From contig JADGCV010000012.1 of the NCBI GenBank assembly GCA_015228815.1, positions 26,749 through 90,748 on the forward strand: a stretch of DNA of 64,000 bases. Reading direction: 5' to 3'. Under the pieces are notes generated by a model. The model searched no databases, was not told the DNA's origin, and saw only the letters and a program-made list of their open reading frames with translations. Source of the stretch: Magnetococcales bacterium. Lineage in GTDB: Bacteria; Pseudomonadota; Magnetococcia; Magnetococcales; UBA8363. The position numbers and the translations under genes are program-made. Below are positions 19,101 to 35,495 of this stretch, piece after piece; the first letter of the stretch is position 1, and each line of letters opens with the position of its first letter.

Positions 19101-19847
19101 ACCGCATGGGAACGGGCCGTGGATCGTGCGGGATCCATTTTTGGCATTTCTGTCTCACCTCTGTGCAATGCCGCCAATGTGGTCAACCTGGCCCAGGAGA
19201 TTCAGAACCGGCTGGCCCTCCATCTGGAGCCTTGCCGCCGTTTGGCCAAGGCGCTGGGAGAACGGAGCCAGGCGCTTTCTCTGCCCGGGGATGCTGCCCG
19301 CAAACAGAGCGCGGATTCCGTGCTCGCTCTGCTGGAAAAAATGCGCCATGTCGAGGCCAATGCCCTGGTGACCATTCTGTCCGAGTGGGCGATCCCCACC
19401 AGCAAGGAAAGCCTGGGCAAAAGCCTGAAGAAAGCCGCCGATGTTCTGGCCTCCCTGAATGGCGCCGAATGGGACATTCTGGAGGTGGCATGGGGATTGA
19501 CGGACGAACGGCAAACCCTGGCTCGGGCCAACCGGGCCAAGGTGATCGACGCCCTGTCCCGGGACGAACTGGTGGTTTCCCTGGGCGCTGTGTTGCGGGA
19601 GGCACGGAACGAAGCGGTGCGATTGTTGGGGCTACCAGCCAAACCGAGGCCACCCGTTTCGCCACCGGAACCGCCCATGGTCATCCCGTCGGGTCCGCGC
19701 GGTCGCAGGATTTTCGCGACCGTATCCCGGCAGGGGGTGGCCAGGGCCGAGGCCAAACGGGTTTTGCAAGGGATCGAACAGCAACTGGACCAGCACCCTC
19801 ATGCCTCGATGACCATCGAAGTCCGCATCGAAGGGGAAGAGGAGTAG
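16188..19847 (+). CDS. BrxC/PglY-family BREX P-loop ATPase (1219 aa)
   Basis: The N-terminus reads LRHYVVTPQLKERFDHAITFVKSAV...AAYLHGSFGSGKSHFMAVLHLLL. It parallels the BrxC pattern (VVT..L...., GFFGSGKSHF), and the size is about 1200 aa. It lies next to a PglW-like kinase remnant. Confidence 0.8.
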   Translation: MTLIKELIEIPERVHKGDFVLRLAEGVERADETLRHYVVTPQLKERFDHAITFVKSAVDNQASKAAYLHGSFGSGKSHFMAVLHLLLQHNPDARAIPELSPVVAKHDGWLTGKKLLMVPYHMIGAISMESAILGGFVQHVRKRHPEAGIPGVYLAEGIFRDAIKLREEIGDYGFFPMLNGPVKEEGDWGALEVTWYPKRFDEALKQPPGGELRTALVGDLVKNIFTAHASLAATQEEAFVPLEEGLAIISRFARGLGYDGLILFLDELILWLASHVADLKFVSAEIQKVIKLVESGDGQRPVPIISFVARQQDLRELVGEHMPGVQRLSFADTLKYWEGRFDIITLEDRNLPLIAEKRVLRPKSDAARAQLQTAFETATRVREEILSTLLTSNGDREMFRRVYPFSPALVQALVALSSVLQRERTALKVMIQLLVNQRETLELGRIVPVGDLYDAIADEAEPFTSEMRHHFENARKLYRQKLLPMLEKDHAVRAENIADLPVTDVKRRAFLTDDRLVKTLLLSALVPAVECFKGLNASRLTALNHGNVRAPIPGQEAGIVLQKCRKWAGQVGEIKIGDEPTNPTLSVQLTGVDIETILEKARGVDNPGSRAKKIREILFAALGISDSDALFGVEVVHTWRGTSRALDVVFANIREMADETLKGGEERWKAVIDFPFDVAGYTPLDDLATLERFRNRNKPSRTFCWLPSFFSREVQRDLGSLVVMEHVLTSDDRFRGYTGHLSEIERASAKSLMDNQRSQLRQYVQNCLEGAYGITLAAPGTLDGAHNLADHFQSLDPTFQLRPPVAANLKGGFLHLVEQALGHQFPAHPRFEAEIKAANLKRVMEEVIRAIQSSEGRVGVEKPLRSLMKQIATPLLLGEMYETHFVRDTHWKTHFERKIIDHGSLTTVYHLRQWTDDPKPMGLPTVAQNLLILLFAQQTNRVFMRHGMVIQPNLERIPDDAVLHQQILPEQTAWERAVDRAGSIFGISVSPLCNAANVVNLAQEIQNRLALHLEPCRRLAKALGERSQALSLPGDAARKQSADSVLALLEKMRHVEANALVTILSEWAIPTSKESLGKSLKKAADVLASLNGAEWDILEVAWGLTDERQTLARANRAKVIDALSRDELVVSLGAVLREARNEAVRLLGLPAKPRPPVSPPEPPMVIPSGPRGRRIFATVSRQGVARAEAKRVLQGIEQQLDQHPHASMTIEVRIEGEEE

Positions 19848-19861
19848 AATTTGCGCCCGAT

Positions 19862-20100
19862 GGTAACCGTTCAGACCCCCTCTCCCTCCGGGAGAGGGTC
19901 GGGGTGAGGAGAAACAGAAACTCCATCATTCAAAGGGCTGTGGTGATCCTTGAAGAACCATTCCAATTGCTTGATTTCGTGACGAGATCTTTCTATGGAA
20001 TTACCGTTGATCAAAGCGCCGGTTCCCTCACCCCTGCCCCTCTCCCAGAGGGAGAGGGGAAAAAATCCAGGGGGGGGCTGAATGGTTACGAACGGTTACC
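19862..20100. mobile_element. MITE-like palindromic element (239 bp)
   Basis: An 11-bp perfect terminal inverted repeat, GGTAACCGTTC / GAACGGTTACC. The inner arms CTCTCCCTCCGGGAGAGGGTCGGGGTGAGG and CCCTCACCCCTGCCCCTCTCCCAGAGGGAGAGGGG are inverted copies. It sits between the convergent BrxC/PglY and radical-SAM genes. I saw no clear target duplication. Confidence 0.6.
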
Positions 20101-20122: not shown

Positions 20123-21211
20123 TCAAGGGGCAAAGATCAAGGTAGGGAGATAGCCGTCATGGATACACGGTCTTGAACCATGAACGTGTACATTCAACTG
20201 AATGTCTCCCCAGTCGGCAGCGACGTCATTGTTTTCCAGCGGACAATAAGGATCCCGGCAATCCATGGTTTGATGCCAGATGATACGGCGATCAAAAGCA
20301 CCGCCCTTGCAATGGTGTTTGACCGGACAGCCATCACAGGAACGTGGCCACTCGAAGTTCAATTTGTGGTGACCGATCAACCGGTCTGGCAACAGTTGAT
20401 CGCTCAGATCCAGTTCAAGGATATGTCCCCGTTTCCAATCCGAAGAGACCAAATAAGTTGAGGGGGTTACCGAGCCATCGGGCAGAATGCGAAGACTGGA
20501 TGTGCCGGAACAGTCTTTTTTTTCCTCATTGCCGATGAGTGCGGAGATGAGCGGATCCGCCAATGAAACCACTTTATGATTGCCAATTATCCACTTCAGG
20601 GAGCTTTTTAAGGCGCCATATGACAAAACGGGTATTTTTTGTCCTGCGTTTGGCCTGAAAATATTGATGCGTACAAAACAACCGCGTTCGGTTGCTATTG
20701 CAAAGATTTTTTCAAGATTTTCTTTTGTCAGAGTTTGATCGATCCCCAGCATGGTCAGTGTTGTGGTCATCCCTTTGGAGCGGCACAGGTCGATACAGTC
20801 CAACGCCCAACGGTACGCATGCTCATTGTTGCGGAAGTTGTTTTGTTTTTGTTCATCGGCGAAATCCAGAGAGATGTCCACTTCCTCCAGGGCGGAGAAA
20901 ATGATTTCCTGTTTATCGGGGGCCAGTTCCACGAGGCTGCCGTTGGTGGTCAGGGCCTGGGAGATGTCCGGGAAAGATTTGGCCACATGCGACAAAAGAG
21001 AGATCCATTCCGATGACAGGGTGTTCTCACCTGTTCCATAATTAATGGAATCGATATAGGAATAATTCCTGTCGATGAATTGAATATTATTAAGAAGTGG
21101 CGAATCATTATGAGTTGATCTTGACTCTTTGCTGTAACAAAATTCGCATTTCATATTGCATGCCGAGGTTGTTCCCCACCCAATGTGCCATTTCTTCATT
21201 TTCAATTCCAT
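20123..21211 (-). CDS. Radical SAM enzyme with SPASM/twitch-like C-terminal Cys cluster
   Basis: CNMKCEFCY is the CxxxCxxC motif. The C-terminus has RILPDGSVTPSTYL and SCDGCPVKHHCKGGAF...CRDPYCP. The local GC is low by eye. Confidence 0.8.
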   Translation of the reverse strand: MELKMKKWHIGWGTTSACNMKCEFCYSKESRSTHNDSPLLNNIQFIDRNYSYIDSINYGTGENTLSSEWISLLSHVAKSFPDISQALTTNGSLVELAPDKQEIIFSALEEVDISLDFADEQKQNNFRNNEHAYRWALDCIDLCRSKGMTTTLTMLGIDQTLTKENLEKIFAIATERGCFVRINIFRPNAGQKIPVLSYGALKSSLKWIIGNHKVVSLADPLISALIGNEEKKDCSGTSSLRILPDGSVTPSTYLVSSDWKRGHILELDLSDQLLPDRLIGHHKLNFEWPRSCDGCPVKHHCKGGAFDRRIIWHQTMDCRDPYCPLENNDVAADWGDIQLNVHVHGSRPCIHDGYLPTLIFAP

Positions 21212-21253
21212 GCTTATTAGAGAAAACCAGAAGAACCTTGTCGCGTTTTTATT

Positions 21254-21640
21254 TTACTTCCTGACAATTTTGTTTGGGCCGGCCCATTTTTCCTGGAATT
21301 CAGTCAATGCAGCGATTTGTTCGTCGGAATATCCCTGCCTGGCGGGTGATATAACGATCAATTTGTCGTCTTTTTCCTGCAATCGGACCAATACCGCGAT
21401 ACAGAGTCCCTGAAAACGCTCCAGAGGTTCGAATTCGCCCAATACGTAGGCGTCCAGTTCTTCACCATCATCGGAAAGGGTGCCGGGTACGTGCCCGTAA
21501 TTTTGCAGATAGGTAAACCCGAGGCTGTGATGTTTAAACCCAATGGGCCGTTCAACAACAACTTCCACGGTATGGCCGATAAACTGAGTGGAATCTGTAA
21601 CCTTTCTGTTCAAAACCGCCCTCGCATTGATGGCACGCAT
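21254..21640 (-). CDS. Small inorganic-pyrophosphatase-like protein
   Basis: NYGHVPGTLSDDGEELDAYVLG resembles the PPase Y-G-x-P-x-T-x-x-x-DGDPLD-x-x-VL core. At 128 aa it is shorter than canonical PPases. Confidence 0.5.
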   Translation of the reverse strand: MRAINARAVLNRKVTDSTQFIGHTVEVVVERPIGFKHHSLGFTYLQNYGHVPGTLSDDGEELDAYVLGEFEPLERFQGLCIAVLVRLQEKDDKLIVISPARQGYSDEQIAALTEFQEKWAGPNKIVRK

Positions 21641-21769: not shown

Positions 21770-21982
21770 TCAGGCGTCAAGATTGGCCGCCTTCAGGTAC
21801 GCCTGATTGGAACTGCCGCTCTTTACCGCCTGATTTTTCACCGCCAGAACGTATTCCACGCCATCGTCCGTCACCCTTTTTGAAATGCCCCGTTCGTTGT
21901 ACGCGCTGGCAAGGACATCCCCCAAATCCTGCAGGTATTGATGACGTTCATCCTGGGAATGCATAAGTCTTTGTTTTGACAT
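21770..21982 (-). CDS. Hypothetical 70-aa protein
   Basis: An internal ATG of ORF 21770..22075 gives MSKQRLMHSQDERHQYLQDLGDVLASAYNERG.... The composition is sensible but there are no motifs. It lies in the AT-rich segment. Confidence 0.3.
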   Translation of the reverse strand: MSKQRLMHSQDERHQYLQDLGDVLASAYNERGISKRVTDDGVEYVLAVKNQAVKSGSSNQAYLKAANLDA

Positions 21983-22580
21983 GATCAATCTCCGATTATC
22001 AGTGGTTATCATCAAAAATGGCAGCCATGCCAACGCGCGCCATTCACACAGAACCAAACCCGCATCCAGACACAACCCGACAGCCCGGGAGACGGCGCAT
22101 ATCGAGCGGCGTCCTGAATTGACTTGTGGTGCATTGTAACATGAATTTTGAACTTGTCAAATAGTTAAAATCACCTGTCGTTCGTTTTTTATGATGTTGC
22201 GCAAATGACGAACAAATAAAAAAATAACAAGACATTGTATTATTTGATAAATCATTCCACCAGAGGACCCCGTTCGCACCGTTTCGACCGATCATGCCAG
22301 CGTCGGCCTGAAGATATGGAAACAAAGGATCCGGGTCGATTCCTGAAAAATATTCGTTCTGGAAAAACAGATCAAACCTTCAGGATTTAATTGATGTTTT
22401 TTATTTTTGTTTAGACAATAGTTTCCATTTTTTTGTGTTTTCAGAGCAAAGTCTTGACACGGTGAATGAAAAAATATATATTGAAGACCGGTACGTGTCT
22501 TCAAGGGAGGGATGGCTGTGCTCCAAGAGGGCCGGGGCTTTGAGTCCGCGGTGATTTCAGTGGCCAAACATGTGTGAAGG

Positions 22581-23894
22581 GTGACCAGGATGGTTGGAAG
22601 ATATACCCAGGCGTTTAGAACCAGGCAACTGTTGGAAACCCTGGATCATGCCATTGCAAAATCATCCTTCTACCAGCACCATCTTGGTGCTTTTCGGCAC
22701 CAAGTGAACAGTGTCGATGACCTGGGTGTTCTGCCCACCATCGGCAAGGAGCATCTGGCCCGGCACGGATTGGAAATGCGCACCTCGAAGGCTTTTCCAA
22801 TCCGTTTTGGCATCTCATCGGGGTCCACCTGGGGCGATTTCCGGCCAGGCGAACCAGGCGACAGTCTCTCCTCCCTCGTCGATCCGGCCATTTCCTTTCA
22901 GACCTTGCAGGAAATGGCGGCCATGCGGCACATCCAACAACGGCTGTTTCCACAGGACTCCGGCAATAAAAGTCTGACTTTGCAAATTATTTCCGCATCC
23001 CATGGCATTCGGTATGAAACGTCCGAGGATGGTTACATCCATGCTCCGCTGGAAAGCCCCTTCCACTACGCCCACATCAAACGTCTTCTCCGGACCCGGT
23101 TCGACTTCGATGGCTATCACCCCAGAATTCAAAACGTCGCAGGGGGATTGAACAGTATCAAACTGCTCAGTGAACTGATCCGGCACGACCCGGAAAAGGA
23201 GAAGCTGGATCTCCGGTTGGAGCGGGTCCTGGTTTACGGCCATCATTTGACCCGTTTCTGGAACCGCCGTCTGGAGGAGGTTTTTGCCTGTCCCGTGTTG
23301 AATATTTATGGGATATCGGAAATGTCCGGTGCCACCGGTTTTCAATGTGAGTGCGGTTCGTTCCATATGCCGCCCTTCATCATTCCGGAAGTGATCTCCC
23401 TGGACCGGGCATGCCGGCCCGTCACGCAAGGAGTGGGAGAGTTGGTACTCACCGCCTTGGTTCCTTTTACCGAATATCAGCCTCTGATCCGCTATCGTAC
23501 CGACGATGTGGTCCTGCAAAGTGGTGCCTGTCCCCAGGTGCCGGATATGGGGATTCTTCCCCTCGGTAAAAAAACGAAAACCATTCAAGGACCTGATTAT
23601 ATCCTTCCCTCCTTTCTGCTGGACGAGGTTTTGGAAAAGGTTCCATGGGTTCCAAAAAAGATCGCGGAGAAATTCGCCGTCTTTTTTGACAGCCAACCCT
23701 ATGGGCCGCCCATCTACACCGTGAACCACAGGCCGGGGAAACGCATGCCCGTTGAAATTCTCATTGCGTGCAACACTCCGGACCGGCCATCCGTTTCCGA
23801 ACGGGCCAGGGTGGTGGCGGAGGCCGGTGAAAAGCTGCTGCGGATCGATGGATCAAACGTCAATCAACCCCTTATAGAACTGATTGTAACCTGA
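22581..23894 (+). CDS. PaaK / coenzyme F390 synthetase-like adenylate-forming ligase
   Basis: Motifs: ISSGSTWG (degenerate SSGTTG), YGISEMSGATGFQCECG and LIRYRTDDVV. The start is GTG 22581 or ATG 22590. Confidence 0.7.
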   Translation: MTRMVGRYTQAFRTRQLLETLDHAIAKSSFYQHHLGAFRHQVNSVDDLGVLPTIGKEHLARHGLEMRTSKAFPIRFGISSGSTWGDFRPGEPGDSLSSLVDPAISFQTLQEMAAMRHIQQRLFPQDSGNKSLTLQIISASHGIRYETSEDGYIHAPLESPFHYAHIKRLLRTRFDFDGYHPRIQNVAGGLNSIKLLSELIRHDPEKEKLDLRLERVLVYGHHLTRFWNRRLEEVFACPVLNIYGISEMSGATGFQCECGSFHMPPFIIPEVISLDRACRPVTQGVGELVLTALVPFTEYQPLIRYRTDDVVLQSGACPQVPDMGILPLGKKTKTIQGPDYILPSFLLDEVLEKVPWVPKKIAEKFAVFFDSQPYGPPIYTVNHRPGKRMPVEILIACNTPDRPSVSERARVVAEAGEKLLRIDGSNVNQPLIELIVT

Positions 23895-24959
23895 ATGAAT
23901 GCCCCATTGATTACCTCTTTTTGCACGACGGGTGGGTGTGCCGGAAAGATTGGTCCGGATATTCTGGAGACGATGCTTTCTCCCATGCGTCAATTCCCCA
24001 GCGTGTCTCAGTTGCTGGTGGGGTTGATGGATCAGGACGATGCGGCGGTCTATGCACACAACGGAACCGAAGGGTTGATCTTCTCGGCCGACTTTATCCC
24101 GCCATTGCTGGATGATCCGACCGCATACGGCGAAATTGCGGCGGCGCACGCCATCAACGATATTTATGCCATGGGGGGAACACCGCTCATGTGCGTGAAT
24201 CTGCTGGCGATTCCTCAACCACTCCTGGGATCGGATACCGTGACCAGGATCCTTGGCGGCGTGGCGCAGAAAATCGTGGAGGCCGGAGCTTTTTTGGTGG
24301 GAGGGCACTCCATACGCAGCCGCGATTTGTTGTGCGGGCTGGCAGTTATCGGTCTGGTACACGTTGAAAAAATGTGGCGGAAAAACCAGTCGCGGGTGGG
24401 TGATGCCATCGTGTTGACCAAACCTTTGGGATCTGGGGTGGTGTTGTCCGCTCATGGTGCCGGTATGTTGGCAAACGATGCCGAGATGGGTCCCAGTCTG
24501 GCCTGTATCCGGCGCCTGAACCGGGCGGCCACGGAAGCATTGTGTCTTTTTCACGTTCATGCCGCCACGGATGTTTCCGGTTTTGGCCTGGTTCACCATG
24601 CAGCCGATATTGCCCGACACTCCGCCGTCAGCCTGATCTTCGACTGGGAACGGATTCCCATCCTGGAAGGTGCCTTGAATCACATGGAACAGGGGATACG
24701 CTCAAGTCTGACGGAGGCCAACCGCAGGCATCTCCATCACGAAGTGCGCTACCCCCCGTCCTGCGCTTCCACGGTGCAGGACATGTTGAACGAACCACAA
24801 ACCAATGGCGGGTTGCTGGTGACCCTTCCCTGGGAAGAGGCGGAAGAAGCCGTGCGACGACTTCACGATTCGGGGGAACGGGATGCCTGTGTCGTGGGCC
24901 GGGTTGCCGCCTTTCAGGATGACTTCAAGATCGGGTTTTCCCCATTAATCAACCCATGA
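23895..24959 (+). CDS. SelD-like (PurM superfamily) selenide/water dikinase homologue
   Basis: The N-terminus reads FCTTGGCAGKIGP, against the canonical G-C/U-G-C-K-I-x-P. Other motifs are DDAAVY, AINDIYAMGG and VGGHSI. The ATG abuts the upstream TGA. Confidence 0.75.
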   Translation: MNAPLITSFCTTGGCAGKIGPDILETMLSPMRQFPSVSQLLVGLMDQDDAAVYAHNGTEGLIFSADFIPPLLDDPTAYGEIAAAHAINDIYAMGGTPLMCVNLLAIPQPLLGSDTVTRILGGVAQKIVEAGAFLVGGHSIRSRDLLCGLAVIGLVHVEKMWRKNQSRVGDAIVLTKPLGSGVVLSAHGAGMLANDAEMGPSLACIRRLNRAATEALCLFHVHAATDVSGFGLVHHAADIARHSAVSLIFDWERIPILEGALNHMEQGIRSSLTEANRRHLHHEVRYPPSCASTVQDMLNEPQTNGGLLVTLPWEEAEEAVRRLHDSGERDACVVGRVAAFQDDFKIGFSPLINP

Positions 24960-26140
24960 TTGATCGTCACATTCATTTTACCGGCGCCCTGCCGATGTGG
25001 TTTCTGGCGCATTGTGCGACACAACCCTGGGTTGGGCCCAGTGTGCGGGACCGTTTGATCGCCGCGGTGTGCGCCCATGACGGGGCGAGACATGCTTCCC
25101 TGACGGGAAAACGGTTGCAAAACTGGCTCAAAGGCTGGTTCGGCGCGGACCATCGGCGCAATTATTTCCGCTTTTTCGAGGTGTACGATCTTCTCCATGG
25201 CCTTGTGCATCCTCCTGGAGATGCGGAGCGTCGATTGGCCTTTCGGGAAGGGGCGGAAGCCTTGGCCATTGGCTTGGTTGGTGAGGGGGTCAGGGCATGT
25301 GAGTTGCTTGTCGGCCTGAAGCCAACCGTGGAACAGACGGTGGAGCGGATTCAGGCCATCATCGAGGGGTTTGAACGTTGCCGTCGGCGTCTGGGACGCA
25401 CTCCATCCCTGGGCTTGCGGCTGACGATGATCCGGACGGAGCATGGAGATTCCCCCGTCGTGACACCGGAACTCATGGAAGGTTTGTTCCTGGCCCTGGA
25501 GGAAACAACATCCTGGAGTCCGGCTGTCGTGGGTCTGGATCTGTGCGGCATTGAAAACCCGGAGCGGGCTGATGCGACATTTCGTATGATTGCGCTTTGG
25601 AACCAGTTGAACGAAATTCGTAGACGGCATGGTCGATCGGGGCTTTCCATTTCCGTGCATGCGGGCGAAAATATGACCAATGTGAGTTCTGATACCTATT
25701 TTGCATTTTTTGAAAAACTCTTGAATTTTCGGATCGATCGCATGATTCATGGGACCTTCCTGTGGATTTCACCCCGGAGCCTGGAACTTGACCGGGAAGA
25801 AACCCGGGCCAGGGAGGCGATTTTGGATGCCATTGCGAAACGTCGGTGGTCTTTCGACATCTGTCCCACATCGAATCTGCTGCTGACGCCTCTGGCTCGG
25901 GCCGATATTCCCGCTGGATTGGATCGGCTGCGCGCCCGCGCCATCGATTTTTCGGTCTGCACCGACAATCCGGCGATCCTGCAAACATCCCTGGCACGGG
26001 AGCATGAGCTGGCCATCCATGGAACAAGCGAAAGAGAGCCCTATGACACGTCAGACCACGATGGAGCGCGTATCGGAAGGGGTGGCCGGTTTGAACCGGC
26101 TTGCTGCCCGGTTGGGCGACCGTGCGCTGAAAAGGAATGA
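24956..26140 (+). CDS. Adenosine/AMP deaminase-fold metallo-hydrolase
   Basis: Motifs in canonical order: DRHIHFTG (HxH), SISVHAGE, DRMIHGTFL, ICPTSNLLL and VCTDNPAI. The start overlaps the upstream stop (ATGA). The 3-prime ~100 nt overlaps the next gene, so either that end or the next start is uncertain. Confidence 0.7.
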   Translation: MIDRHIHFTGALPMWFLAHCATQPWVGPSVRDRLIAAVCAHDGARHASLTGKRLQNWLKGWFGADHRRNYFRFFEVYDLLHGLVHPPGDAERRLAFREGAEALAIGLVGEGVRACELLVGLKPTVEQTVERIQAIIEGFERCRRRLGRTPSLGLRLTMIRTEHGDSPVVTPELMEGLFLALEETTSWSPAVVGLDLCGIENPERADATFRMIALWNQLNEIRRRHGRSGLSISVHAGENMTNVSSDTYFAFFEKLLNFRIDRMIHGTFLWISPRSLELDREETRAREAILDAIAKRRWSFDICPTSNLLLTPLARADIPAGLDRLRARAIDFSVCTDNPAILQTSLAREHELAIHGTSEREPYDTSDHDGARIGRGGRFEPACCPVGRPCAEKE

Positions 26141-26981
26141 TCAAGGATTTGCCAATCAGATCTTTCTGGGTGAGCGGTTCGTTTACAAATGCCACAAGAC
26201 TTCAGGCCAGGTCCCAACGGCCAAGCAGAAAAAGGAGGCGTTGGTTCTGCGTCATCTTGCCCAATGCCTGGATTGCTCCATGCGGTCTCTGGTGCCTGAA
26301 CTCATCCATGAGGAACAGGTTTCGGAGGACTACCATGTTGTCGTCCAGCAAAGGTTGACGGGATGCCCGCCAGAACGGTTGGACCAAACCCTGGCGGAAT
26401 CCCTCGGACGTTTTCTATCCGTACTCCACGCAATTCCCCAGGACCCTTGGATGGATGAATTCGAGGGCGAGGAACATCGCCAGACCTTCCGTGATTATCT
26501 TATTGATCAACCAATTCGCTTCGCCGAAAAACTCAATGCGTCCGAATTGGTGGATACGTCGGACCGGGCGTTGATCCGCCAGGCTGTGGACGCCATTACC
26601 TTTGCCGCTCGGAGGTTGTCCGATCCTGTGCCTCTGGTTTTGAACCACAAGGACTTGTTTGAAAGAAATCTGCTGCAACACAGGGGCCGGTTGACTGGAA
26701 TCATTGACTGGGACGCGGCGCAAACGGCTCCCAGAGAGTGGGAATTCGCAATTCTCAGGCAACGCATTCCCCAATTCTGGGAAGCGGCCCACGGATGTTA
26801 TGGCACGCCTGTCGATCCCCTGATCATGGACTGCTGTGCCCTGGCCCAAAGCCTGAGATTTTGGAAGTCCTTTCCGCATCATGCGGATTTTGCAGATGCC
26901 CAGAGGTGCCATATCCGCGATATTCTGAAAACATTCGTAACTGCCCAGGTACCCTCTCCCCGGTTTCCCCTGGTTCGATAA
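26043..26981 (+). CDS. Aminoglycoside-phosphotransferase (APH)-fold kinase
   Basis: ORF 26004..26981. Motifs: VYKCHK, LNHKDLFERNLL (HxDxxxxN) and GIIDWDAA. The start is uncertain (26004, 26043 or 26061). Confidence 0.7.
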   Translation: MTRQTTMERVSEGVAGLNRLAARLGDRALKRNDQGFANQIFLGERFVYKCHKTSGQVPTAKQKKEALVLRHLAQCLDCSMRSLVPELIHEEQVSEDYHVVVQQRLTGCPPERLDQTLAESLGRFLSVLHAIPQDPWMDEFEGEEHRQTFRDYLIDQPIRFAEKLNASELVDTSDRALIRQAVDAITFAARRLSDPVPLVLNHKDLFERNLLQHRGRLTGIIDWDAAQTAPREWEFAILRQRIPQFWEAAHGCYGTPVDPLIMDCCALAQSLRFWKSFPHHADFADAQRCHIRDILKTFVTAQVPSPRFPLVR

Positions 26982-27002
26982 ATTTCCGTCAAAGGAGCCT
27001 CT

Positions 27003-27992
27003 ATGAATTTGGATACGATTTGGCGCCCGGAGGAAAAGGTGTTGTATGACCGGTTGGTGGACGACCCGTTCTCCTCCCATTGGTGTATTTCCGATCTTTT
27101 GGCCCATTACCAACTCGATGGGCAGCCGGTTGAACCGGAGGCCATGGCTGGCACCGTCGAGATTATTGATAAGGTGTTGAATTATATCAATCAGCAACTT
27201 TCCCGGGATAACAATTGGATCGTTCCAAAACAACTATTGCGCGAAGGCTGTTTTCCACGCATTCGGCAAATGCGAGATGTCCATCAATTCGATGTTGGCA
27301 GCCACCTGGCATGTTGCCATGCTTTGGCCGTTCGCGGCGCTCCCGTCCATCTGTGCCGGACGCTCGGACACAATCGACTGGCCGATCGGTTGTACCAGAC
27401 CTGCGCTCGGGTGCCCGTCACGACGCTTGGGTTGACCGCTCTGTTTCACGATATATTCAAATGTTTACGCCCCCGCCGTCCCCTGCCCAGCAAAATGGGC
27501 GTGTTGGCCGATTTTGAATGGCAATTGCCCGATGGCACGTATCCCTCGTCCCAGATCCGGGAGGACGAGGGCGCCATTGCCAGTTCGGCGATGCCCTGCT
27601 TCGTCGCCGATGAGCGTGTGACCCGCCCGGCCATCCAGGCGATCCTGACAGGCAATCGAATGGGCCAACTGCTCTATTCCCGAATCAAGGAACATCCCCG
27701 AGACCATCTGGAATCCTTTGAACTTCGGCTCGACCAGTTGCTCACGGAACCGTGGGCATGGTTGGGGATTTACATGGGAATTGTGGATTGGCAGGGGAAA
27801 GGTTTGGCCCAGTATGTGGTGGCCACGCGGAAAAAAGCAGTCAGAAGTCTGCATGATGCCGGTGTCGAACTACTATCGGCCATCGAGGAACGTCTTTTAC
27901 GAATGGAATCAACACTTGGCGCACGCACAGGCATGAGACCGTTGGCAGGCCATGCTTCTGGCTGTGCTGTCTGTTCTCATGGGGAAATATGA
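27003..27992 (+). CDS. Hypothetical protein, possibly HD-type phosphohydrolase
   Basis: The only weak cue is GLTALFHDIFK (an HD dyad) after histidines in SHLACCH. The coding call rests on operon context and composition. Confidence 0.4.
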   Translation: MNLDTIWRPEEKVLYDRLVDDPFSSHWCISDLLAHYQLDGQPVEPEAMAGTVEIIDKVLNYINQQLSRDNNWIVPKQLLREGCFPRIRQMRDVHQFDVGSHLACCHALAVRGAPVHLCRTLGHNRLADRLYQTCARVPVTTLGLTALFHDIFKCLRPRRPLPSKMGVLADFEWQLPDGTYPSSQIREDEGAIASSAMPCFVADERVTRPAIQAILTGNRMGQLLYSRIKEHPRDHLESFELRLDQLLTEPWAWLGIYMGIVDWQGKGLAQYVVATRKKAVRSLHDAGVELLSAIEERLLRMESTLGARTGMRPLAGHASGCAVCSHGEI

Positions 27993-29263
27993 GCGTTCTG
28001 CTGTCTCATTGGTATGACCTGGCCCAATTCATGAGTGATCACGCCATCAAGGTGGTGGGGTTGGATTTGCGTGGCACCCTGGTTGATCCGCAACGAAAAG
28101 GTAACCTGTTCAAGGTCGCCCGGTCCATTCTGACAGGAGTTCCTCCGGCCCTGCTGGAATCCATCTGCCAAACCATTCCCGATCTTGTCATTCAACGCCA
28201 TGAACACGAGGAACAGGTCTGCGACTGGACCCTGATGACCTGTCTGGAATTGTTCGGGGAATTGCGGGTCCGGGGTGTTGAAACCGGAAACCTGGATTTG
28301 GAGCGCCTCTATTCGTTGATCGTGCGTGACTATTTCAGGGAAGCGCGGCATCTGGTGGATGACGACGCACTTGAGGCGCTGATTGCCGCCTGCAACGCGA
28401 TGAATATTGCGGTTCATATTGTCGCCGATGGCATGGCTTGGCGGGAGTCGGCCATCTTTCAGCAGTTATTCCCGGTCAGTTCCAGACGGATCGCCGGATT
28501 TTTCAGTTCCTCCATGGGGGGTATCAATAAACTGTCTCCACGTTACTACCAGGCATTTGCCGATGCCCTTGGCCTGCCGGTCCGCCACGTTCTGATCATC
28601 GGGGACCGGTTCGACAAGGATGTCGGCGTGGCCTTGAAAGCCGGGTGTCGGGCTTTGTTGATTGCGCCGGACCCGCGCGCTCCGTTGACGACCCCATCGT
28701 TAAACCATATTCTGCCAGGCATTTCCAGAAGCCATGATACGGGCGTGATCCTTGGGCGCTTCCAGCCGTTCCATCTGGAACATTTGCGCTATGCCCGGGC
28801 CGCCAGTCACAGGGCCAGAACGTTGATTGTGGGAATTACCCAGCCTTTCGGTGCCAACAGCGGCGAGCCGGGTCAGGAACGGACCAGGCCGGATCACAAT
28901 CCTTACCCCTATTGGTTGCGCGAACAGTGCGTTCGTCATGCCTTGTTCGAGGCCGGGATCCAGGTGCGAGCCATCCTGCCGTTGCCTTTGGATGTGGCGA
29001 GCCTGCAATCGGCCCTTGCCCCGGATACGCCCATTTTTACAACCGTCTTCGACCGTTGGGGTGAGGAGAAGGAGGCGCTCTTGCGGCAAAGTGGCTTTAG
29101 TGTGTACCGGCTTGAGGTGGGAGATAAAACCATCACCGGCAGTCAAGTCAGAGCGTTGGTCGAGAAACGTGACAACCGTTGGCGCACTTTCGTTCCCCCC
29201 GTGGTTGCCGAACGGTTTGGCGCGGCGATTGAAACGTATCTGATCAACGGGAGACGATCATAA
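27989..29263 (+). CDS. Fusion of a HAD-type phosphatase (N) and a GRFQPFH nucleotidyltransferase (C, NMN adenylyltransferase-like)
   Basis: VVGLDLRGTLVD (DxDxT-like) and IIGDRFDKDV mark the N-terminal half. GVILGRFQPFHLEHLRYARAA is a cytidylyltransferase-family H-x-x-H motif in the C-terminal half. The start overlaps the upstream stop (ATGA). Confidence 0.7.
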   Translation: MSVLLSHWYDLAQFMSDHAIKVVGLDLRGTLVDPQRKGNLFKVARSILTGVPPALLESICQTIPDLVIQRHEHEEQVCDWTLMTCLELFGELRVRGVETGNLDLERLYSLIVRDYFREARHLVDDDALEALIAACNAMNIAVHIVADGMAWRESAIFQQLFPVSSRRIAGFFSSSMGGINKLSPRYYQAFADALGLPVRHVLIIGDRFDKDVGVALKAGCRALLIAPDPRAPLTTPSLNHILPGISRSHDTGVILGRFQPFHLEHLRYARAASHRARTLIVGITQPFGANSGEPGQERTRPDHNPYPYWLREQCVRHALFEAGIQVRAILPLPLDVASLQSALAPDTPIFTTVFDRWGEEKEALLRQSGFSVYRLEVGDKTITGSQVRALVEKRDNRWRTFVPPVVAERFGAAIETYLINGRRS

Positions 29264-30561
29264 TGACGCATGCGTTTTGCGGCCTGGACTTCGGTACCAC
29301 CAATTCCACCATCGGGATTGTGAAGGAAAGGCCGTTGCTGGTTCCTCTGGAGGAGAATCATTCCTATATCCCCTCGGCGATTTTCATCGATGAGGCGTCG
29401 GGGGACTGGTCGTTTGGCCGGACGGCCATTGAAAAATACATGGAGGGTCATGACGGCAGGCTCATGACCTCGCTGAAAAGCCTGCTGGGTTCTTCGTTGA
29501 TGTCGGAAAAAACACTGGTTGGCCATCGGTATTATGCGTTCGAGGAAATCCTGGAAAAATTTCTGGGAATGATCAAATCCAGTGCCGAACGGACTCTCGG
29601 CCACCCGATCCACGATGTGGTCGTGGGACGTCCGGTCCATTTCAAGAACGACGCTCCCGATGCCGATCATCGCGCCCAGGAGATGCTTACCCGAATTCTG
29701 CGAACGATCGGGTTTGACCACATCGTTTTCATGTACGAACCCGTCGCCGCCGGGATGGTCTTTCATGCGGAGATACCCCAGGAGAATCACCTGTGTCTGG
29801 TCGTGGACATCGGAGGAGGAACCTCTGATTTTTCGGTCATCCAGGTTGAACCGCCCCGTGGGCAGGATGCATCGGGCGGATTCAAGGTTTTGGCCAGCAA
29901 TGGCATTCCCATCGCGGGCAATGATTTCGATCAGGAGATTAGCCTCCGGCTGGTGATGCCTCATTTGGGACTGGGGTCCACCGTAAAAAGTTTCAGTAAT
30001 CCGGCCATCCCCTTTCCGAAACATTTTTTTTACGACTTGTCGTCTTGGCGCTTGATCAATCGGTTATACAACAACGACACGATCGTGTCGTTGAAAGATC
30101 TGGTTCATGGTTCCAACGACAAGATCAGAACCGGTCGGTTGTTGAAAGTCATACAGGAGCGGCACGGGCATGCCATCAACAAGAGCGTTGAGGATCAAAA
30201 AAAAACTTTGTCCGATGCCGGTCCATCGCTGTTGAATCTCGAATATATCGCTGCGGATTTGCGTATTCCCATTGAGTCTGGCGAGGTCCATCAGGCAATC
30301 CACAACAGTTTGGCAAAAATCGTTACCATGGCAGAAAAGACGATCATGGATGCTGGCGTCCAGGCGCACCAGATTGATCAGGTTCTGTTCGTGGGTGGAT
30401 CGACAAAACTGCCCCTGGTTCAGGAACGCATCATGTCTCTGGTTCCAGAGGGCAAGAAGGTCATCAAGGAAGCCTTTGGCAGCATCGGTCTCGGATTGAC
30501 CCTGGCAGCGGCCAAACGGTTTGGACCCACCACAACTTTATGTGATGGTGACATCCGATGA
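29263..30561 (+). CDS. Hsp70/actin-fold ATPase (YegD-like)
   Basis: Motifs: FCGLDFGTTNSTIG, VVDIGGGTSDFSV and LFVGGSTKLPLV. There is no substrate-binding lid region. The start overlaps the upstream stop (TAATG). Confidence 0.8.
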   Translation: MTHAFCGLDFGTTNSTIGIVKERPLLVPLEENHSYIPSAIFIDEASGDWSFGRTAIEKYMEGHDGRLMTSLKSLLGSSLMSEKTLVGHRYYAFEEILEKFLGMIKSSAERTLGHPIHDVVVGRPVHFKNDAPDADHRAQEMLTRILRTIGFDHIVFMYEPVAAGMVFHAEIPQENHLCLVVDIGGGTSDFSVIQVEPPRGQDASGGFKVLASNGIPIAGNDFDQEISLRLVMPHLGLGSTVKSFSNPAIPFPKHFFYDLSSWRLINRLYNNDTIVSLKDLVHGSNDKIRTGRLLKVIQERHGHAINKSVEDQKKTLSDAGPSLLNLEYIAADLRIPIESGEVHQAIHNSLAKIVTMAEKTIMDAGVQAHQIDQVLFVGGSTKLPLVQERIMSLVPEGKKVIKEAFGSIGLGLTLAAAKRFGPTTTLCDGDIR

Positions 30562-30581
30562 CTTTACGATAAGGTGTCTTC

Positions 30582-32144
30582 ATGGCTTCATCAGTTGTAT
30601 TGGCTACACCGGCACCCATTTCCCATCGCACCGCGGAGGAAAATCTGGGACTGGCTTATTTGGCGGCGGTTCTACGGTCCCACGGCTTTCCCGTCGTGAT
30701 TCTGGATGCGTGGTTGTCGGGTTGGTCCGAGGAGGTCTTGTCGCAGCGGATCCTTGCTTGCGGCGAAATTCTTTGGATCGGTTTTTCCGCCTATCGTTCC
30801 AACATGGAACAGGCCATAAAAACAATCGACCTTTTGCGAGCAGCCGGTTTGACCGCTCCGGTGGTGGCGGGAGGATATGGTCCCACATTCCACACGGAAA
30901 CTTTTTTAAGGGCTGGGTTCGATTTTGTGGTTCGGGGGGAAGGCGAGTGGACGGCCCTGGATCTCACAAGACATTTCTTGACGGGTCATCCGCCTTTGGC
31001 GTTCATTCCCAACCTGTCCTTCCTTCAGGCGGGCCGGATCGTGGACACGCCCCACCGTCCGTTAATACAGGATCTGGATACGCTGCCGGATCCGGCTCGC
31101 GACACGATGCCCATGTCGATGGCACGGAAAAGTGCCATCCATATTGATTCCTCACGAGGATGCCATGGAAAATGCGTTTTTTGTTCGGTCACGTCCTTTT
31201 TTCATCTGGCACCGGGACGTCAGTGGCGGGAACGATCCATCGTTCGTTTTGTGGACGAGTTGGAACGGTTGACCCGGCGAGGCATTTCTTGTTTCAAGGT
31301 TTTGGATGACAGTTTTCTTGAGCCGCCGCGCGATCTTGCGTGGTGTCGCTCGCTGGCCGACGAGATTCAGTCGCGGGGGCTTGAGGTACAATTGCGTGGA
31401 TCTTTGCGTGCCGATCAGGTGACTGGTGAAATTGTCGGTGAACTCAAGAGGGCAGGCTTTTTTTCCTTTGCCTGTGGGATCGAAAATTTTTCCGACACGG
31501 CCCTCAAGCGCATGCGCAAGAGGGCCACAAAGCAAGAAAACCTTCAGGCTTTGGCCAGTTTCAAGGAACATGGCATTTATGTCCAGGCCGGTCACATCCT
31601 TTTTGATCAGGGCACGACCCTGTGCGAATTACAGGAAAACCTGGAGCAGATGCGGCAGACCATGTGGACATTAAGCAAGGGCATTTTTTCCATCATGTTT
31701 GCCGCCGATGGCACGCCCCTGGCCCATCGTTTGCGACGCCATGGCACTTTGTTGGAAGATCCACATGGTTTTGGCAACAATAACTACGATTTGGAAAATC
31801 CGGAGGTGTTGCCCGTCTATGAGGGATTGAGGCTTTGGCACAAGGCCCACAGCGTTACCTACGACAAAACAATGGATCCCCTGTCCGCTCCCAAGGCCAT
31901 CTCGCCGCAATGCCGGCGTGGTTTTCATGCGTTGTCTCTGGACTTGCGCCAACAGGATTTGGCAGTCATGTCACAATTGCTTGATTTGGCCATGGCGGAA
32001 CGACCGATGAAGGAGGTTTTAGCGTATGTCCACCAAACCATTCTGGACAAGCAGCCGTTTTATCGGGCATTGGAGGAAAAACTGGGGGCGTTGTATCGGG
32101 AAACCGGTTTGGTTTATGACGCTGCGGTCAATCCCTTCATCTGA
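30582..32144 (+). CDS. Cobalamin(B12)-binding-domain radical SAM enzyme
   Basis: An N-terminal Rossmann-like LGLAYLAAVLRSHGFPVVILD is followed by SSRGCHGKCVFCSV (CxxxCxxC). Confidence 0.8.
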   Translation: MASSVVLATPAPISHRTAEENLGLAYLAAVLRSHGFPVVILDAWLSGWSEEVLSQRILACGEILWIGFSAYRSNMEQAIKTIDLLRAAGLTAPVVAGGYGPTFHTETFLRAGFDFVVRGEGEWTALDLTRHFLTGHPPLAFIPNLSFLQAGRIVDTPHRPLIQDLDTLPDPARDTMPMSMARKSAIHIDSSRGCHGKCVFCSVTSFFHLAPGRQWRERSIVRFVDELERLTRRGISCFKVLDDSFLEPPRDLAWCRSLADEIQSRGLEVQLRGSLRADQVTGEIVGELKRAGFFSFACGIENFSDTALKRMRKRATKQENLQALASFKEHGIYVQAGHILFDQGTTLCELQENLEQMRQTMWTLSKGIFSIMFAADGTPLAHRLRRHGTLLEDPHGFGNNNYDLENPEVLPVYEGLRLWHKAHSVTYDKTMDPLSAPKAISPQCRRGFHALSLDLRQQDLAVMSQLLDLAMAERPMKEVLAYVHQTILDKQPFYRALEEKLGALYRETGLVYDAAVNPFI

Positions 32145-32392: not shown

Positions 32393-32815
32393 ATGAAGGT
32401 CGAACCATATCTGTTTTTCGAGGGCCGTTGCGAGGAAGCCATCGACCTATACCGCCGTGTTCTCGGCGCCGAGGTGACGTTTCTCATGCGTTATCGGGAG
32501 AGCCCGGAACCCTCCGAGCATTGGCCCAACCCGGAGGCCGGCGACAAGGTCATGCATGCGAACCTGCGCCTGGGCGATACCATGGTGATGGTTTCCGACG
32601 GCCAGTGTGGTGGGAAGGCGGGCTTCGAGGGCTTCTCCCTGACTGTGTCCCTGGCCGATGTTGGGGAGGCCGAACGCATCTTCGCCGCCATGAGCGACGG
32701 CGGACAGGTGCGGATGCCTCTTGGAAAAACCTTCTGGTCTCCCTGTTTCGGCATGGTGACGGACCGTTTCGGGGTAGGATGGTTCATCGTGGTGCATGAA
32801 ACCATGGCCTGCTGA
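32393..32815 (+). CDS. VOC/PhnB-like glyoxalase-fold protein
   Basis: KVEPYLFFEGRCEEAIDLYRRVLGAEV ... VMHANLRLGD ... TFWSPCFGMVTDRFGVGW is the typical PhnB-family pattern. Confidence 0.8.
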   Translation: MKVEPYLFFEGRCEEAIDLYRRVLGAEVTFLMRYRESPEPSEHWPNPEAGDKVMHANLRLGDTMVMVSDGQCGGKAGFEGFSLTVSLADVGEAERIFAAMSDGGQVRMPLGKTFWSPCFGMVTDRFGVGWFIVVHETMAC

Positions 32816-32816
32816 G

Positions 32817-33215
32817 GCGTAACCGTTCAGACCCCTTCCCGTATTAAGATTATTGGTAACTGCCCAGGTACCCCCAGGGTCCAGAATTATTGAAAGAAAA
32901 AAGTGGTCTGGGGGATTGCCCCCAGGGTTTTGACTTTGTTTTTGATTTTGTTTTTCCACGCGCCCTTTTACCCGAAGCAAGATTCCCGCGTGATTTTTGC
33001 GGGAATCTTGCGTAGGCGTGCGCCTTGGTTTACCCTTCTTCGCGGTTTTTGCGAAGAAGGGTAAACGCCGTGCAGGTTGAAAGGCCTGAAAACGTGCAAT
33101 TCGCTTCGGGTGAAATGGCGCGTAAAAAACAAAATCAAAACCCTGGGGAAAATCCCTTAAGACTCCTTTTTTCTTTCAATAATTTTAATATGGGGAGGGG
33201 TCTGAACGGTTACGC
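32817..33215. mobile_element. MITE-like long palindromic element (399 bp) with 20-bp perfect TIRs and a 4-bp flanking duplication
   Basis: The TIR GCGTAACCGTTCAGACCCCT (32817-32836) pairs with AGGGGTCTGAACGGTTACGC (33196-33215). TGAG occurs immediately outside both ends (32813-32816 and 33216-33219). The arms are an extended imperfect inverted repeat, and there are two central hairpins (AAGATTCCCGCG..CGCGGGAATCTT and TTTACCCTTCTTCGC..GCGAAGAAGGGTAAA). Confidence 0.7.
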
Positions 33216-34235: not shown

Positions 34236-34850
34236 ATGGAAACGAAACCGGCAGAATCAGTCGCCATGGGACGAACGAGCGACGCCAGGGAACGACTGAT
34301 CCAAAGCGGCATGGAGCTGATCCACGCCGGAGGATACACTCAGGCTGGCGTCCAGGAAATCTGCGATCAGGCCGGAGTGCGCAAGGGAAGTTTCTACCAT
34401 TTCTTCCCTTCCAAGGGCGATCTGGCCCTGGCGGTGGTGGAGCGCTTCCAGGAGCAGGCCCGGGAAATCTTTCTCGACCGGGCGTTGGCGTCGGATCTGC
34501 CCCCGGGGGAGCGCATCCTGCGCTTCTTCACCCTGGCCGGAGAGATCCAACAGGGGTTCAAGGAGGCGGACGGGTGGGTCAAGGGGTGTCCCTTCGCCAA
34601 CCTGGCCCTGGAGATGAGCACTCGTGACCAGGCCTTGCGCCTTTTGTTGGAGCAGGTGCTTCAAGGGGTGATCCAGCAACTCGAAGGTGTGGCGCGGGAG
34701 GCGGGTCAGCCCCCATCAGCCGCGCAGCGGACGGCGGAAGCGATCTTTTCCCTCTTCGAGGGGGCCATCCTGCTGGCCAAGACCCGCAACGATCCGGAGG
34801 TCATTCGTCGCATGGGCGCAGTAGCCCAAACCTTGATCGAGATGGCGTGA
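34236..34850 (+). CDS. TetR/AcrR-family transcriptional regulator
   Basis: ARERLIQSGMELIHAGGYTQAGVQEICDQAGVRKGSFYHFFPSKGDLALAVVE is a canonical TetR N-terminal HTH. Confidence 0.85.
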   Translation: METKPAESVAMGRTSDARERLIQSGMELIHAGGYTQAGVQEICDQAGVRKGSFYHFFPSKGDLALAVVERFQEQAREIFLDRALASDLPPGERILRFFTLAGEIQQGFKEADGWVKGCPFANLALEMSTRDQALRLLLEQVLQGVIQQLEGVAREAGQPPSAAQRTAEAIFSLFEGAILLAKTRNDPEVIRRMGAVAQTLIEMA

Positions 34851-35458: not shown

Positions 35459-35477
35459 GCGTAACCGTTCAGGCCCC
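35459..35477. repeat. Solo terminal repeat of the GCGTAACCGTTCAG element family
   Basis: GCGTAACCGTTCAGGCCCC matches the 32817 TIR with one mismatch. No partner end lies nearby. Confidence 0.4.
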
Positions 35478-35495
35478 GTCATTCCCTGCTACAGT

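Follow-up and report, generated by a model that had tools for sequence, protein, structure and literature searches.

The 64-kb stretch of a Magnetococcales metagenome-assembled genome (MAG) analyzed here, hereafter the window, carries between positions 20123 and 32144 a group of genes that is best explained as one divergently transcribed biosynthetic gene cluster (BGC). Its rightward arm comprises eight plus-strand genes (g1 to g8, 22581-32144), among them a selenophosphate synthetase gene (g2), an APH-fold kinase gene (g4), an orphan gene (g5), a fused HAD phosphatase-nucleotidyltransferase gene (g6), and a gene for a cobalamin-binding radical S-adenosylmethionine (SAM) enzyme (g8), and its leftward arm encodes a second radical SAM enzyme and a short pyrophosphatase-fold (PPase-fold) protein. 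We propose with moderate confidence that the cluster directs the formation of a nucleoside- or pentose-derived metabolite with the use of selenophosphate, while the individual steps are held with much less confidence than this general statement. An antimetabolite of nucleoside or pentose type that contains selenium is the probable product. A sequence-only reading of the window had offered a modified, possibly selenium-bearing nucleoside as one outcome, and this is still the best reading of the gene content. The cluster would be a rare selenium-equipped version of a widespread core, a candidate for a new route by which selenium enters a small molecule, and a 12-kb clonable target for the discovery of new C-Se chemistry.

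Selenium-type clusters and their four-gene module

The eight plus-strand genes had been regarded as an orphan operon, with gene neighborhoods named as the test of recurrence. Elsewhere, the genes for the APH kinase, g5, and the HAD-nucleotidyltransferase are contiguous and accompanied by selD and both radical SAM genes; the set recurs in eight further clusters, and the radical SAM core in approximately 75 genomes. The eight selenium-type clusters beyond the window come from Hoeflea sp. AS60, Nocardia arizonensis, the sister MAG Magnetococcales DCbin2 (locus L009), and five metagenome contigs, and the nine clusters together span at least four bacterial lineages. SelD, the APH kinase, g5, and the HAD-nucleotidyltransferase follow an all-or-none pattern in 9/9 clusters, and g5 and g6 occur essentially nowhere outside them. 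SelD is locked to the orphan g5 family and to two radical SAM enzymes. A further metagenome search for selenium-type loci recovered only the known ones.

Family assignments were made with Pfam and NCBIfam profiles, and scores are compared with the curated cut-offs. The SelD assignment of g2 lies well above the equivalog cut-off of TIGR00476 (Table 1), and four other cluster SelDs score 197-263 bits against the same cut-off of 125. The g2 protein matches Escherichia coli SelD (Protein Data Bank [PDB] entry 3u0o) with 176.5 bits, and both the Cys and the Lys of its N-terminal loop are in register: the loop TGGCAGK of g2 corresponds to GAGCGCK of 3u0o (Cys17, Lys20) and to SGCAAK of the Aquifex SelD 2yye. 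The loop had been called deviant because it reads GGCAGK, a concern that is unfounded since the catalytic Cys and Lys are kept. Both residues are retained in all cluster copies with a readable N-terminus. In L009, a 1-nt deletion in a G run (approximately 3630-3650 of that locus, corresponding to approximately 24175 of the window) splits the selD reading frame and removes the N-terminus, which reflects an error in the assembly or else a recent inactivation.

The SelD homologue might instead be a paralogue recruited for a selenium-independent reaction, making thiophosphate or phosphorylating a pathway intermediate, and the cluster would then yield a nucleoside that is phosphorylated or carries sulfur but no selenium. 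The cluster SelDs are mutually divergent (32-37% identity) and remain under the stricter cut-off of the enterobacterial-type model PRK00943 (148-259 bits against 299; 258.6 bits for g2), ThiL and other members of the PurM superfamily phosphorylate organic substrates, and the cluster contains neither a selenium transporter nor a known selenium transferase. However, the copies stand well above the TIGR00476 cut-off, they conserve the loop Cys and Lys that are specific to selenide activation, and the ThiL and HypE models score far lower on g2 (77 and 44 bits, respectively). We therefore consider a selenium-free role distinctly unlikely and regard g2 as a genuine SelD by sequence, of a divergent lineage.

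The orphan g5 is identical (100%) to the NCBI protein HQL76_07065. Only 13 homologues were found among 5.8 billion proteins, and when 1.84 billion representative proteins were searched with a profile, 16 members and no remote ones came back. No match was obtained in Pfam, NCBIfam, PADLOC, or the PDB, including a profile search of the latter. The invariant residues include R80, R88, R91, D92, H94, D97, H101, H149, D150, K153, R156, R158, R159, and K164. Among these, H94, H149, and D150, together with the nearly invariant D262, may be read from the alignment as a metal-ligand pattern resembling H..HD..D. For the confident AlphaFold2 model (pLDDT 85), Foldseek gave nothing significant in the PDB, the top matches being TmpB and phosphodiesterases at E > 0.4. 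The previous assignment of g5 as a possible HD phosphohydrolase finds neither an HD profile nor an HD fold match and remains a guess from this pattern, whereas the other seven family calls are upheld by Pfam or NCBIfam, that of g1 weakly. Judging from its conserved residues, g5 probably depends on a metal and has a phosphorylated compound as its substrate.

The HKDLxxxN and DWD motifs of the g4 kinase are invariant in eight orthologues, and g4 always directly precedes g5. The protein falls under the cut-off of every curated kinase model in NCBIfam. The g6 fusion, for which four word-indexed homologues were found, is 35-40% identical in every selenium-type cluster. It matches the Pfam families Hydrolase and Hydrolase_like, and CTP_transf_like with 20.1 bits, just below the cut-off of 21 bits. 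Its C-terminal domain shares only the GRFQPFH motif and the fold with archaeal NMN adenylyltransferase (NMNAT; 20.6 bits to the PDB protein MJ0541) and lies below the archaeal NMNAT cut-offs (PRK01153, 32.9 against 127 bits; TIGR01527, 27.1 against 181 bits). The earlier idea of an NAD-related system had no basis other than this distant NMNAT-type fold and is not sustained.

A widespread radical SAM core

The selenium module is attached to a core trio composed of the g8-type B12-radical SAM enzyme, a SPASM radical SAM enzyme, and the PPase-fold protein. The g8 protein has the architecture of class B radical SAM enzymes, with an N-terminal B12-binding domain and a CHGKCVFC motif at residue 194. 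It falls outside all curated B12-radical SAM subfamilies, among them BchE, OxsB, Fom3, GenK, and HpnJ (best BchE, 112 bits against a cut-off of 481), and its top PDB sequence matches are 9ccb (49 bits) and then OxsB (43 bits). The SPASM/twitch-type enzyme of the leftward arm has a CNMKCEFC motif at residues 18-25 and a Cys-rich C-terminal region, and shares 23-26% identity along its entire length with the radical SAM enzyme encoded next to the B12-radical SAM gene in loci L001, L002, and L004. The PPase-fold gene is conserved in L009 with a ratio of nonsynonymous to synonymous substitution rates (dN/dS) of 0.52.

Searches with g8 yielded 499 homologues at E ≤ 1e-60, which are 43-56% identical across phyla. 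A scan of one genome per species gave 80 loci, whose open reading frames (ORFs) were all clustered; the counts below refer to 75 non-redundant loci. These loci belong to Streptomyces, Nocardia, Streptoalloteichus, Bradyrhizobium, gut Alphaproteobacteria ("Ca. Enterousia"), MAGs of Bacilli, Mollicutes, and Erysipelotrichaceae, and also Clostridia, Muribaculaceae, and Patescibacteria. The g8-type gene is accompanied by the SPASM radical SAM gene in 63/75 loci and by the PPase-fold gene, which adjoins the radical SAM pair, in 46. Other recurrent neighbors are an MTAP-like (PNP) phosphorylase and an HprK/FomB-like P-loop kinase (35 loci each), a nucleoside deoxyribosyltransferase-family (NDT) protein (23), an Amidohydro_1 enzyme (17), an Hsp70-like ATPase of the g7 family (14, mostly together with an ADA-fold gene), an adenosine deaminase (ADA)-fold enzyme (12), a Nudix protein (11), and a dNK/TMPK-like kinase (9). 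The core family is widespread, unnamed, and uncharacterized, and the present analysis provides a working hypothesis for it across gut commensals, candidate-phyla bacteria, and actinomycetes.

The strongest comparative signal is the non-orthologous replacement of an adenine-nucleoside enzyme. In place of the ADA-fold g3, sister clusters carry an MTAP-like phosphorylase or an Amidohydro_1 enzyme, and at least one adenine-nucleoside enzyme is present in 57/75 loci (41 of the 51 in which both flanks extend for at least 5 kb). The loci without such an enzyme are mostly decaying Bradyrhizobium copies. Since three unrelated enzyme families are interchangeable, an adenine nucleoside must be processed in the pathway.

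The same enzymes are open to another interpretation, in which the core acts on a peptide, lipid, sugar, or cofactor rather than on a nucleoside, and the ADA-fold, PNP, and amidohydrolase proteins only remove inhibitory 5'-deoxyadenosine and S-adenosylhomocysteine (SAH). The replaceable enzymes are indeed closest to MTAP, 5'-deoxyadenosine deaminase, and methylthioadenosine (MTA)/SAH deaminase; SPASM radical SAM enzymes are often peptide maturases, HprK-like kinases are able to phosphorylate lasso-peptide precursors, and a conserved 70-aa ORF stands at the head of the left arm. On the other hand, NDT, dNK/TMPK-like, Nudix, MazG, ThyA-like, and ThiD-like genes accompany the core, and there is no PqqD/RRE domain, protease, or transporter of the type found with peptides made by the ribosome and modified after translation (RiPPs). 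No precursor ORF is conserved across the loci, and in Bacilli-type operons only 60-100 bp separate the regulator from the first gene. The only conserved small ORF, that of 70 aa, is lineage-specific and was rejected as a RiPP precursor. A non-nucleoside substrate is accordingly regarded as improbable.

The core could also belong to primary or salvage metabolism, either as a deoxynucleoside route independent of ribonucleotide reductase or for the recycling of adenosyl by-products in anaerobes with reduced genomes, with the window as a selenium-linked offshoot. The core is common in Patescibacteria, Mollicutes-like Bacilli, and Enterousia, and several of its partners (NDT, dNK/TMPK-like kinase, PNP, and ThyA-like protein) are classic deoxynucleoside-salvage enzymes. 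A very low probability is given to this view, as the distribution is patchy and tied to mobile elements or plasmids, the Bradyrhizobium copies are decaying, the actinomycete versions lie among tailoring, exporter, and regulator genes, and the association with HelD/HelR and MazG suggests the management of toxicity.

Several lineages carry distinctive versions of the core. The actinomycete cores (L006/L064 from S. hygroscopicus, L092 from the S. clavuligerus plasmid pF1D35B, L011, L012, and L014) are joined to ThyA-like, NDT-family, ThiD-like (187 bits), FAD oxidase, and TenA-family genes, and also to aminotransferase, methyltransferase, and ABC exporter genes. This gene set resembles bacimethrin-type hydroxymethylpyrimidine chemistry; a thiamine/bacimethrin link was not extended to the window, which is without ThyA-like, NDT, ThiD-like, and TenA genes. 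A compact version (L093, 8950-16317) is located on the conjugative plasmid pM190262 of Enterococcus sp. M190262, a human isolate, and encodes a B12-radical SAM enzyme (34% identical to g8), a radical SAM enzyme, an inorganic diphosphatase, a 961-aa A-T protein resembling nonribosomal peptide synthetases, and an MFS transporter. In Bradyrhizobium (L007, L010, L036, L061, L078, L084, and L085), transposases surround the core pair, which is close to nitrogenase-type genes and adjoins genes for a class II aldolase, an extra radical SAM enzyme, and a Peptidase_S10 protein. Fragmentation of the B12-radical SAM gene in several of these strains suggests decay.

Indications of a bioactive product

A gene for a HelD/HelR RNA-polymerase-recycling helicase is located in or directly after the operon in approximately 31 loci, which belong to Bacilli, Mollicutes, Clostridia, and Muribaculaceae. 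Examples are found at L008 (12013-14193), L079 (8677-10761), and L090 (6024-8024). The "UvrD" gene that follows the Bacilli operons encodes HelD (418.7 bits), and the helicase of L090, which lies inside a selenium-type variant, is HelR-like (349.9 bits); a MazG gene is present in L091. HelR-type proteins shield RNA polymerase from inhibitors. The linkage with HelD/HelR therefore suggests that the core product acts on RNA polymerase, and, in combination with "house-cleaning" genes of the MazG, Nudix, and PPase types, that this product is a toxic nucleotide analogue. The exporter and the A-T protein encoded on the Enterococcus plasmid, and the location of the selenium-type loci L002 and L089 on mobile elements, are further signs of a bioactive product. 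The cluster of the window itself has no HelD/HelR gene. If the core product is a polymerase-directed nucleoside analogue, the family would matter for antibiotic discovery and for gut microbial ecology.

The association with HelD/HelR would also be compatible with polymerase-stalling nucleotides from a nucleotide-based conflict or anti-phage system, which would form a toxic or chain-terminating nucleotide upon infection in the manner of viperin, or deplete or deaminate nucleotides, with selenium and phosphorylation as part of the effector chemistry. Such a role had been raised in the sequence-only reading, and there are observations in its favor. The cluster adjoins BREX type 2 remnants and other defense-type genes, and the selenium-type loci L002 and L089, which lie between integrase/recombinase, relaxase, and TrwB genes, are on mobile elements. 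Weak domain-level matches were obtained with PADLOC (CARF_ADA, 37 bits; PDC-M61B, 38.7 bits; PDC-M51A, 31.4 bits). However, no system model of PADLOC-DB 2.0 was matched, five of the eight proteins had no match of any kind, and the cluster has no sensor- or effector-type domains. The surroundings of the core in Bacilli, Enterousia, and Actinomycetes are ordinary or secondary-metabolite chromosomal regions with LysR/IclR regulators, exporters, and tailoring genes, and a conserved defense-island context is not seen in the other genomes. A defense role is thus unlikely. A known defense system was rejected as the identity of the cluster, and so was a phage origin, as none of 2.9 million viral contigs contains the core.

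Proposed pathway

For the proposed selenophosphate-using pathway, we infer the substrate, the order of the steps, the site of selenium, and the bioactivity from gene content. An adenine nucleoside, an adenine nucleotide, or a 5'-deoxyadenosyl adduct would have its sugar remodeled by the core radical SAM pair. The adenine would then be processed by the ADA-fold g3, a step that may fall to the MTAP-like phosphorylase or the amidohydrolase in sister clusters, and the ATPase g7, the PPase-fold protein, and other phosphohydrolases would set the phosphorylation state. SelD (g2) would produce selenophosphate, while the APH kinase g4 and the g6 fusion could turn a hydroxyl group into a phosphate or nucleotidyl (nucleoside diphosphate, NDP) ester leaving group. 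Selenophosphate may displace this group in a SenB-like manner, followed by hydrolysis of the Se-P bond, and g5 may catalyze or complete the selenium transfer. Finally, the ligase g1 might tailor the product by adding an acyl or aminoacyl group. The roles given to the selenium module come from the co-occurrence of its genes and from precedent.

Several points weigh against this proposal. No known C-Se-forming enzyme (SenB/TIGR04348, EgtB-like, rhodanese SelU, or pyridoxal phosphate-dependent SelA) was detected with NCBIfam, no exporter or obvious resistance gene is located inside the cluster of the window, and g8 appears to be only distantly related to any characterized enzyme. The adenine-nucleoside enzymes, closest to MTAP and to 5'-deoxyadenosine/MTA deaminases, could merely clear radical SAM by-products, and the SelD of g2 might also serve the housekeeping of the host. 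The phosphorylase variants L004, L030, and L091 keep the APH kinase, which weakens the detail of an anomeric kinase acting after hydrolysis. All functional statements made here are predictions from genomes.

Comparison with known systems

The sequence-only reading knew of no described system with this composition, and a literature search likewise found no published description of the cluster or its core. To our knowledge, selenoneine and ovoselenol are the products of the only two dedicated small-molecule selenium pathways, both of which use a SenB-type selenosugar synthase. SenB forms a C-Se bond in a selenophosphate-dependent manner on an NDP-activated sugar, and the authors who described the sen genes reported no selD within a recognizable BGC (10.1101/2022.04.13.486033). 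The window resembles the selenoneine (senABC) and ovoselenol (ovs) clusters in having a dedicated SelD homologue in a biosynthetic cluster and in the expected attack of selenophosphate on an activated sugar. Unlike those clusters, it encodes neither SenB (TIGR04348; NCBIfam search of the cluster and flanking proteins) nor an EgtB/OvoA-type enzyme, and therefore does not belong to the sen/ovs group; in place of the sen enzymes, it has two radical SAM enzymes, the APH kinase, the HAD-nucleotidyltransferase, and the orphan g5.

The thmABC genes of Photorhabdus, which direct 4'-thiothymidine formation, encode a radical SAM enzyme, an AbmG-like kinase, and an NTPase that gives self-resistance, and B12 was included in the expression medium (PMC12691670). 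AbmM of albomycin biosynthesis is reported to take sulfur from its own Fe-S cluster (PMC12691670). Judging by its description, thmABC appears to be the closest published logic. Together with AbmM/AbmG/AbmJ of albomycin biosynthesis, it combines a radical SAM enzyme, a nucleoside kinase, and a nucleotide phosphohydrolase to place a chalcogen in the sugar of a nucleoside, and genes resembling those of the thm type (dNK/TMPK-like kinases, Nudix, MazG, and PPase-like proteins) are present in sister clusters. In contrast to the thm and albomycin systems, SelD in the window points to selenophosphate as the donor. The cluster of the window has an APH kinase and no dNK/TMPK domain as in AbmG/ThmB, although this domain is present in nine sister loci.

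A bolder form of the proposal, which we put forward only tentatively by analogy, is that the cluster represents a third independent route of selenium into a small molecule. This route would combine radical SAM remodeling of a nucleoside with a new selenophosphate-using enzyme, either g5 or a SPASM enzyme that exchanges selenium for oxygen in the way of AbmM. The product may then be the first natural selenonucleoside or seleno-pentose, such as a 4'-seleno analogue of the 4'-thionucleoside antibiotics. If so, a function would be assigned to the core family of gut Bacilli, Enterousia, Patescibacteria, and Actinomycetes, whose product may target RNA polymerase given the HelD/HelR linkage.

Other precedents share single elements with the cluster. 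In oxetanocin A biosynthesis, the B12-radical SAM enzyme OxsB acts on the sugar of an adenine (deoxy)nucleotide together with the HD phosphohydrolase OxsA. The cobalamin-type radical SAM enzyme is common to both systems, and OxsB is the second-best PDB match of g8. Nevertheless, this match is weak (43 bits), the invariant partners in the window are the SPASM radical SAM and PPase-fold proteins, and the HD nature of g5 is unproven; the different partners and the weak match thus place the window outside the OxsAB group. Kinases, HAD phosphatases, and nucleotidyltransferases make NDP-sugars, as in MtnK, NahK, and AmgK-MurU, or in ADP-heptose formation by HldE and GmhB. The trio of APH-fold kinase, HAD phosphatase, and cytidylyltransferase-fold protein resembles these anomeric-kinase pairs and the ADP-heptose enzymes, but there is no membership at the sequence level, with g4 below all kinase models and g6 below the NMNAT models. 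In the futalosine pathway (MqnE/MqnB and aminofutalosine deaminase) and in hopanoid biosynthesis (HpnH/HpnG), a radical SAM enzyme is followed by a deaminase or a PNP_UDP_1 protein that strips adenine from an adenosyl adduct. These adenosyl-radical pathways mirror the interchangeable ADA, PNP, and amidohydrolase genes described above, although the homology is only at the superfamily level and none of their downstream enzymes are present here.

Gene structure of the cluster

All eight plus-strand ORFs are present at the positions claimed in the sequence-only reading (Table 1). The five junctions quoted there are also correct to the base, namely TGAATG between g1 and g2 (23892-23897), ATGA overlaps at 24956 and 27989, TAATG at 29261-29265, and a 20-nt spacer (CTTTACGATAAGGTGTCTTC) between g7 and the ATG of g8. 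Two further junctions had been left out: up to 137 nt are common to the ORFs of g3 and g4, and a gap of 21 nt with an AAAGGAG ribosome-binding site separates g4 from g5. Alignment with seven orthologues places a conserved start of g4 near M20 (26061), which is probably the true start. In comparison with the 92%-identical cluster of L009, dN/dS is 0.14-0.32 for all eight genes, which indicates purifying selection and not chance ORFs. A single co-transcribed, tightly coupled operon of nucleotide-type enzymes is supported, although the unit is larger than eight genes, because the divergent minus-strand arm (20123-21640) had been overlooked and the cluster amounts to 10-11 genes.

Table 1. Features of the window, with positions counted from its first nucleotide
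Feature	Position	Strand	Assignment
Cmr1-like RAMP domain match and RecF/SMC/DndD-like ATPase	1938-3425, 3143-5257	-	Left end of the window
BREX type 2 (Pgl) remnants	12703-13617, 14245-15063, 16188-19847		PglW fragments and PglY-like ATPase
MITE-like element	19863-20089		Intergenic
SPASM/twitch-type radical SAM enzyme	20123-21211	-	362 aa; Pfam Radical_SAM, 55.6 bits
PPase-fold protein	21254-21640	-	128 aa; Pfam Pyrophosphatase, 35.8 bits
Possible 70-aa gene	21770-21982	-	Head of leftward operon, between promoter-like site and PPase-fold gene
Divergent control region	22133-22482	.	GC 0.48-0.49; sigma-70-like sites facing both arms
g1	22581-23894	+	ANL/PaaK-like adenylating ligase; NCBIfam DVU_1553 family, 77 bits
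g2	23895-24959	+	SelD, selenide water dikinase (selenophosphate synthetase); TIGR00476, 308.9 bits (cut-off 125)
g3	24956-26140	+	Adenosine-deaminase-fold metallohydrolase; Pfam A_deaminase, 47.7 bits
g4	26004-26981	+	APH-fold small-molecule kinase; Pfam APH, 70.7 bits
g5	27003-27992	+	Orphan protein rich in Arg, His, and Asp; occurs only alongside SelD
g6	27989-29263	+	HAD phosphatase (residues ~20-226) fused to NMNAT/cytidylyltransferase-fold nucleotidyltransferase (~250-408)
g7	29263-30561	+	Hsp70/actin-fold (ASKHA) ATPase, YegD-like; Pfam HSP70, 94.3 bits
g8	30582-32144	+	Cobalamin-binding-domain radical SAM enzyme; Pfam B12-binding (PF02310), 68.8 bits; Radical_SAM (PF04055), 60.1 bits
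YjdN-like gene	32393-32815		VOC/glyoxalase fold
MITE-like element	32819-33213		Intergenic
TetR regulator	34236-34850
MITE-like element	35461-35578		Intergenic
Chemoreceptor	35778-38900	-	NIT, MCP signaling, and CZB domains

The remaining genes of the rightward arm are assigned with varying strength. The ligase match of g1 is weak, with matches to PaaK and F390 synthetase weaker than that to the DVU_1553 family and AMP-binding at 17 bits (below the cut-off), but the SSGST and YGISE motifs are present and dN/dS is 0.165. Only the two Magnetococcales clusters (window and L009) contain a member of the g1 family, and g1 is probably a tailoring enzyme. The HxH, HAGE, HG, and TDNP motifs are visible in g3, whose last approximately 33 residues are not conserved in L009; no structure was matched in a PDB sequence search with this protein. 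According to Pfam, g7 consists of the Hsp70 nucleotide-binding domain only, without a substrate-binding or lid domain, and it scores below the cut-off of the YegD-type model PRK11678 (234.5 bits against 331).

At the head of the leftward arm, the 70-aa ORF has an intact, gap-free counterpart in L009 at 94% identity (dN/dS 0.22). Pfam gave no match, and homologues are absent from all loci but L009; the ORF may be a lineage-specific member of the leftward operon. The promoter scan of the control region gave 11-of-12 matches at 22454-22482 (+) and 22160-22133 (-), and no riboswitch or other RNA was found between 15000 and 36000 with Rfam (E ≤ 1). The right boundary of the cluster is sharp, as homology with L009 ends 13 nt past the stop codon of g8. 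The YjdN-like and TetR genes downstream of g8, which are absent from the L009 flank, are thus probably outside the cluster.

Genomic surroundings

The location of the cluster among defense remnants, as noted in the sequence-only reading, is confirmed by the PglW fragments and PglY of a BREX type 2 system nearby. Two separate ORFs match residues 53-284 and 869-1111 of the PglW model, so pglW is broken, and the PglY-like ATPase scores 1106 bits, below the cut-off of 1700. At the left end of the window, a Cmr1-like RAMP domain match and a RecF/SMC/DndD-like ATPase represent additional genes of defense type. No tRNA gene that could serve as an integration site was found in the window. A 20-nt direct repeat at 19863 and 32819 was considered as an att pair and rejected, as it is the terminal inverted repeat of three small intergenic elements resembling miniature inverted-repeat transposable elements (MITEs). 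These elements, two of which bracket the cluster, are bounded by the inverted 17-mer GTAACCGTTCAGACCCC, which occurs in six copies compared to 0.16 expected by chance. Beyond the third element, a large chemoreceptor combines NIT (nitrate/nitrite sensing), MCP signaling, and C-terminal CZB zinc-binding domains.

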